Origin: Escherichia coli
GTDB lineage: Bacteria > Pseudomonadota > Gammaproteobacteria > Enterobacterales > Enterobacteriaceae
Length of the DNA stretch: 64,000 nt
Assembly: GCF_003018115.1 (NCBI RefSeq)
Contig: NZ_CP027457.1
Direction: 5' to 3' (one strand)
Position numbers and translations under genes: made by a program. Positions 63,369-63,809 of the stretch are shown piece by piece. The first letter of the stretch is position 1. The number at the start of each line of letters is the position of its first letter. The notes under the pieces were generated by a model. It was given only the letters and a program-made list of their open reading frames with translations. It had not been told where the DNA came from and made no database searches.

Positions 63369-63809
63369 TATGACGCTGCTTGTTTAAAGCTGACTGGTTT
63401 TATTGGCATAGTTCAATAGTCAACACCATGTATTATAACACAAGTTACTTTTTCACCGGAAAACTAATCCATTTAACCGAATATCTCTACAACTAATAGT
63501 TATAAATGCCACTTAACAGCGAGTTATAGTACCACTTGAAACTATATTGCCAACAATAGTTAATAGCTTTCTTAACAATTTTCTTATCTTTAATTTGTAT
63601 TTTGCTAAGATTTATCTTATGCTCACAAGTCGTATTTCCAGAGGGGAATAGTTAACAATCTTATATTTCCCTCTGCGCGCCTTTCTCACCCGCTGTATAT
63701 AGTGCAAGTGGTATGAGGAAAGGGAGATTTCACAAGGATGTTATACTCAAAGTAGACAATCCTGATCTCAAGCGTACGTATTGTCCATGCGATGAATAAA
63801 GGAAAAGTT

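Follow-up and report, generated by a model that had tools for sequence, protein, structure and literature searches.

The window analysed here, a stretch of Escherichia coli DNA of 64 kb, was found to contain cspG on the minus strand and cspH on the plus strand near its distal end, followed by an uninterrupted spacer and by the beginning of gfcA (Table 1). The protein read from 63810 was found to start with MKHKLSAILMAF... and is named GfcA in the annotation of matching genomes; GfcA is a threonine-rich inner membrane protein encoded by the first gene of gfcABCDE-etp-etk. The window covered 63 codons of gfcA and the remaining part of the operon lay outside it, whereas in the annotated matching genomes gfcA was followed by gfcB, gfcC, and gfcD. 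The arrangement of the group 4 capsule operon, with gfcA as the first gene located immediately 3′ of cspH, was thus found at this locus.

Table 1. Features of the cspG-gfcA segment in window coordinates, including the positions at which IS1 was found in other E. coli strains
Feature	Coordinates	Strand or IS1 orientation	Details
cspG	62658-62870	minus	ORF in window
cspH coding sequence	63156-63368	+	70 aa, TTG start, TAA stop 63366-63368; ORF list and RefSeq neighbour order
cspH-gfcA spacer, uninterrupted (empty-site) allele	63369-63809	.	441 bp, GC 0.349
IS1 insertion zone of other E. coli strains, none in window	63512-63785	.	both orientations; junctions of 14 interrupted genomes
IS1 target, CH4797	63512-63520	minus
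Best sigma-70-like match TTGGCA-16-TACTAT with TG	63526-63553	-	faces the cspH 3′ end; promoter scans
IS1 target, O39:H21 PEB08-01	63554-63562	minus
IS1 target, 18AR0366	63563-63571	minus
IS1 target, SZQ1	63573-63581	minus
IS1 target, 0H18	63575-63583	plus
Alternative weak promoter-like TTGTAT-17-TATGCT, putative	63595-63623	+	PWM 5.98, not above shuffles
IS1 target, ETEC6 and PKF8	63608-63616	minus
IS1 target, 23AR1183	63608-63616	plus
Inverted repeat, arms 63639-63650 / 63664-63675	63639-63675	+	12-bp RNA hairpin, 13-nt loop
IS1 target, DSM 103246	63674-63682	minus
Invariant block, last 100 bp before gfcA ATG	63710-63809	.	identical in 13/13 strains; invariance extends to 63860
Candidate extended -10 TGtTATACT	63739-63747	+	TATACT 63742-63747, predicted start ~63754; read from sequence
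IS1 target, strain 64	63755-63762	plus
IS1 target, K-12 and A134_1EC	63777-63785	minus
Single CGTATTGTC, 9-bp K-12 IS1D target, unoccupied in window	63777-63785	.	24 nt before gfcA ATG; alignment and blastn junctions
gfcA start	63810-64000	+	ATG 63810, first 63 codons + 2 nt; translation MKHKLSAILMAFMLTTPAAF..., runs off window

The spacer had been described in an earlier note as an AT-rich interval of about 440 bp without a transposase ORF, and this description was borne out by its exact length and by a GC content of 34.9% against 49.9% for the whole window. Since 4.9% of the 441-bp windows in the 64 kb were found to equal or exceed this AT-richness, the spacer was regarded as a typical regulatory spacer and not as an outlier. 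A second AT-rich block, longer than the cspH-gfcA spacer, was found at 18060-18900 of the window (GC about 0.33-0.35 in 441-bp windows). The longest ORFs of the spacer were of 38, 34, and 31 aa, all three with TTG starts. They were rejected as genes because of their overlap with the region of highest variability in the spacer or their disruption by a 23-bp deletion in strain B771, and none is present in the RefSeq annotation, which contained no feature between cspH and gfcA in the uninterrupted RefSeq genomes. A search of 62600-64000 against Rfam at a permissive E-value gave no match in the spacer. The sole match of that search was the cspA thermoregulator at 62604-63026 on the minus strand (158.7 bits, E 4e-43), spanning the leader and coding sequence of cspG, a result to be expected for a cold-shock gene.

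The earlier note had placed an IS1 copy between gfcA and cspH in K-12. In K-12 MG1655 (NC_000913.3), IS1D of 768 bp (1049778-1050545; insA4/insB4) is annotated between gfcA (b0987) and cspH (b0989), and the case of a K-12 lacking an IS at this site was thereby excluded. The gene order cspG, cspH, gfcA is the same in MG1655 (gfcA-IS1D-cspH; b0987, b4516/b0988, b0989) and the flanks of the element were 96-98% identical to the window, with the same 9-bp target CGTATTGTC. The alignment of the two intervals, which the earlier note had proposed as the check, contained a clean insertion of the 768-bp IS1 with a duplication of the 9-bp target on the K-12 side only. The K-12 locus differed from the window by IS1D and by the second target copy, neither of which was found in the window. 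K-12 IS1D gave no blastn match anywhere in the 64-kb window, and no IS1 terminal repeat of either end was found in the window at up to 5 mismatches. As CGTATTGTC was found on both sides of IS1D in K-12 and once in the window, the window was taken to carry the empty-site allele.

The interval 63369-63809 would accordingly be read as the ancestral uninterrupted spacer, serving gfcABCDE-etp-etk, the operon for export of the group 4 (O-antigen) capsule, as its native regulatory DNA and leader, with the K-12 arrangement as the derived one; a probability of roughly 93% was assigned to this reading. The K-12 IS1D would be a derived insertion at the equivalent of 63777-63785, cutting gfcA from all upstream DNA. 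Since neither IS1D nor any other IS1 is present at this locus in the window, the upstream DNA is contiguous with gfcA, and the native promoter and leader, whatever they are, would be physically joined to the gene. The suggestion of the earlier note that the gfc promoter is undisrupted would therefore hold at the level of the DNA, the K-12 IS1 being placed by the literature in the gfc/ymc promoter region. Both the K-12 insertion and the IS-free state of pathogenic strains are already known. In a passage of Lacour et al. that cites Peleg et al. (PMC2516531), IS1 is stated to be present in the ymc/gfc promoter of K-12 and absent from that of pathogenic strains, and the same statement, of a gfc promoter region disrupted in K-12 and not in pathogenic strains, is made in PMC12428005. 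The IS-free EPEC O127:H6, EHEC O157:H7, O145:H28, and Shigella sonnei contained the same uninterrupted cspH-gfcA spacer as the window without structural difference, and that state is called functional in the literature.

A set of 5,426 complete E. coli genomes was searched with the segment 63500-63900, and the region was called uninterrupted where one piece covered at least 80% of the query. The upstream region was found to be present in 3,687 of the 5,426 genomes and uninterrupted in 3,073 of these, whereas it was broken in at least 614 of the 3,687, a lower bound because insertions upstream of about 63580 escape the count. About 1,740 genomes contained cspH without the gfc upstream region, with cspH adjoining appA; in Nissle 1917 these two genes share 13 nt at their 3′ ends and the entire gfc-etp-etk segment is missing. 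The whole spacer and operon were missing from such gfc-less genomes, in which the cspH stop marks the boundary (Nissle 1917 locus 2757-4267). The IS-free state is evidently the majority and ancestral one and, as the empty site is common in E. coli, it is no distinguishing feature of the window strain.

Over 63500-63900, the window allele was found to be 100% identical to that of O145 RM9872 and 99.8% identical to those of O157:H7 strains. The segment 63340-63860 (521 bp) of the window was aligned by MAFFT with that of 12 strains from which IS1 had been removed. The window was gap-free against 10 of the 12, the exceptions being one strain with its own 23-bp deletion and one with its own 10-bp duplication, and it was colinear both with the IS-free alleles and with the interrupted alleles after removal of IS1 and one target copy. 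It was identical to the IS-excised allele of DSM 103246 and differed at a single nucleotide from alleles of the O145 and O157 type. Variation was concentrated on the cspH side, at 63405-63500, and the last variable column of the 13-strain alignment was 63709, followed by the invariant block listed in Table 1. Over 44000-64000, the closest of the 5,426 genomes was GF3-3 (99.0%), followed by O145:H28 strains (98.7%), although the allele upstream of gfcA is of the O145/O157 type.

An empty site might also be secondary, left by the precise excision of an earlier IS1. Precise excision of IS1 is rare. Possible footprints of such events were found elsewhere, namely a 10-bp tandem duplication in ET729 and the 23-bp deletion in B771, which starts from a known IS1 target. 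In the window, by contrast, every known target was found as a single copy, no duplication or deletion was present relative to the majority allele, and the sequence was that of the DSM 103246 and O145/O157-type alleles described above, so that an excision in the history of the window strain is considered highly improbable. The ET729 duplication is of CCCGCAGTAT, equivalent to 63689-63698, and the B771 deletion removes 63608-63630, beginning exactly at the 63608 IS1 target. The two lesions could be old IS scars or the result of simple slippage.

All interrupted genomes that were inspected carried IS1, most of them at a new position (Table 1, where minus denotes the orientation of K-12 IS1D, in which insA and insB read away from gfcA). 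At least 11 independent IS1 events were found at 10 positions within 274 bp, and the 9-bp target 63608-63616 was used in both orientations. In EC554, the plus-orientation junction at 63616 was accompanied by a deletion of gfcA, and HS-01 contained IS1 together with the loss of 63604-63822. The IS1 copies were 91-100% identical to IS1D, which indicates that several IS1 variants were involved. A minus-orientation IS1 upstream of 63777 was found in 414 genomes, at least about 325 of which contained the exact K-12 junction and were mostly laboratory derivatives, and the other junction queries were matched in 57, 20, 15, and 38 genomes; the queries joined IS1 ends and flanks separated by as much as 580 bp, so that these counts apply to orientations and do not resolve single sites.

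As a control, the AT-rich cspG-cspH spacer was found to be broken in 27 of 5,411 genomes. This spacer is far more conserved than the cspH-gfcA spacer, and the contrast could be explained by tolerance of insertion as well as by target preference. IS1 may have a natural hot spot in the cspH-gfcA spacer, and its traffic there may be a recurrent, selectable means of switching off or rewiring the O-antigen capsule, for example under capsule-dependent phages, although this proposal is tentative and was considered less probable than not being so. If it were true, the K-12 IS1D would exemplify a widespread process and would not be a peculiarity of the laboratory strain. IS insertions at bgl and flhDC activate those loci. 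Like the gfc spacer, bgl and flhDC are characterized by repeated IS insertion in AT-rich upstream DNA, at numerous neighbouring sites and in either orientation; unlike the activating insertions at these two loci, those at gfc are usually assumed to be silencing. Lacour et al. (PMC2516531) have drawn the parallel between the gfc IS and bgl.

The spacer was scanned for elements from which gfcA could be transcribed. Scans of its plus strand with the sigma-70 consensus and a PWM gave nothing above chance, the best plus-strand PWM score being matched or exceeded by 180 of 200 shuffles. The best sigma-70-like match was the minus-strand site at 63526-63553, which could drive antisense transcription. 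The TTGTAT-17-TATGCT element loses its -10 in B771 by the deletion of 63608-63630. The candidate TGtTATACT was unremarkable in the consensus sigma-70 scan, and it is located in the block that is invariant in the 13 strains. The searchable literature contained no report of a gfcA transcription start site for an IS-free strain, and no direct regulatory data on gfc with H-NS or RpoS were found in it. The motif search of the spacer gave no IHF core and no H-NS high-affinity 10-mer at up to 2 mismatches, and the ops element GGCGGTAGnnTG of the RfaH/JUMPStart leader was absent, the best match in the spacer containing 5 mismatches of 12.

The inverted repeat at 63639-63675 was found to fold as plus-strand RNA with -18.2 kcal/mol (z -3.77), compared with a z of -0.68 for the minus strand. 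The A/G variation in its left arm preserves A-U or G.U pairs in the 13-strain alignment. The hairpin was followed by no U-tract and belonged to no Rfam family. The IS1 target of DSM 103246 begins at the 3′ foot of this hairpin.

Genomic SELEX with the RpoS holoenzyme has given a peak in the K-12 'insB > < cspH' spacer (map 1049830, intensity 167.2), the second highest of 218 RpoS SELEX peaks, to which no target gene was given by its authors because the flanking K-12 genes converge (PMC5493296). After conversion of the U00096.2 coordinate 1049830 to U00096.3 by addition of 777 bp and then to the window, the peak was located at about 63724, within the gfc upstream fragment that IS1D severed from gfcA and about 20 bp from the TGtTATACT candidate. 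SELEX is an in vitro and strandless method that resolves sites to about 100 bp, and AT-rich DNA accounts for many of the strong peaks; the use of RpoS at the gfc upstream region is an inference from this peak. Two results go beyond the literature found and are put forward as leads, namely the recurrence of IS1 insertion and the strong RpoS-polymerase site.

For K-12 itself, a gfcA promoter TGGAGA-18-TACACT was proposed from sigma-70 SELEX (PMC3946193), and in the K-12 alignment this element was located inside the gfcA-facing end of IS1, so that the transcription of gfcA in K-12 would not be native. In addition, gfcA and insA4 of K-12 have been catalogued as a pair of divergent, overlapping transcripts (PMC12288877). 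The gfc operon of K-12 may thus be not simply silent, and K-12 is a poor reference for the gfc locus, its gfcA being severed from the native upstream DNA and possibly read from an IS1 promoter.

Under the reading of the spacer as the native upstream region, transcription of gfcA would be started within the invariant 100 bp before the ATG by a promoter that is weak and departs from the consensus, for which the extended -10 TGtTATACT would be the best candidate, possibly used by RpoS polymerase. Alternatively, transcription would start further upstream, and the hairpin 63639-63675 would then be part of the leader. The output would probably depend on a regulator or on conditions and would not be constitutive.

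A different source of transcription would be read-through from cspH, by which gfc would be transcribed at least partly, the spacer then serving as an extended untranslated linker in place of a promoter region. The two genes are co-oriented, the terminator scan gave no intrinsic-terminator-like site in 63369-63809, and the 3′ flank of cspH folded no better than shuffles (z +0.47). However, the gfc-less genomes retain the same cspH 3′ end, so that cspH works as a unit alone, and a Rho-dependent stop after cspH may exist; a knockout was complemented by the plasmid-borne S. sonnei g4c operon, expressed from 'its own promoter' (PMC4368438); and the spacer is strongly bound by RNA polymerase holoenzyme in vitro. 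Read-through is therefore regarded as an unlikely replacement for a promoter within the spacer.

An uninterrupted spacer is compatible with different levels of expression. The EPEC capsule requires all seven genes of gfcABCDE-etp-etk (PMC4368438, PMC3853201). In the IS-free O157:H7 EDL933, gfcA mRNA was about 30-fold below that of EPEC and no capsule was visible in N-minimal medium (PMC3853201), which indicates that an intact spacer is no guarantee of expression. The spacer of the window might likewise be intact and the operon silent or weakly expressed as in EDL933, in which case the absence of IS1 would ordinarily have little phenotypic meaning. This is a possibility of some weight, although it was judged the less probable state: the window allele is of the O157/O145 type (99.8-100% over 63500-63900), the mRNA level and the absent capsule stain of EDL933 in N-minimal medium point the same way, and the plus strand of the spacer is without a strong consensus promoter. 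Against it, four O157:H7 strains were no longer infected by 11 myoviruses once gfc-etk had been disrupted (PMC13419801), so the capsule is made under the conditions of that study. Taken together, the low expression in EDL933 and the need of the myoviruses for gfc-etk indicate that expression is condition-dependent. A weakly expressed operon is moreover compatible with the ancestral-spacer reading and does not replace it.

Upstream of its capsule operon, the window strain thus shows the usual wild-type arrangement, and K-12 is a documented exception. Lesions were also found beyond the spacer, within the operon. Strain 042 contained IS1B within gfcB (locus 2506-3203), ETEC6 contained an internal stop in gfcD, A134_1EC contained a deletion from gfcB to gfcD (locus 3028-5041), and an etk frameshift has been published for S. 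flexneri (PMC4368438). The repeated IS1 insertions and the other lesions of the operon suggest recurrent loss or rewiring of the capsule, a pattern in the sequences that may reflect repeated selection on capsule expression. The recurrent IS1 insertions could matter to research on capsule-dependent phages and on the regulation of the O-antigen capsule.
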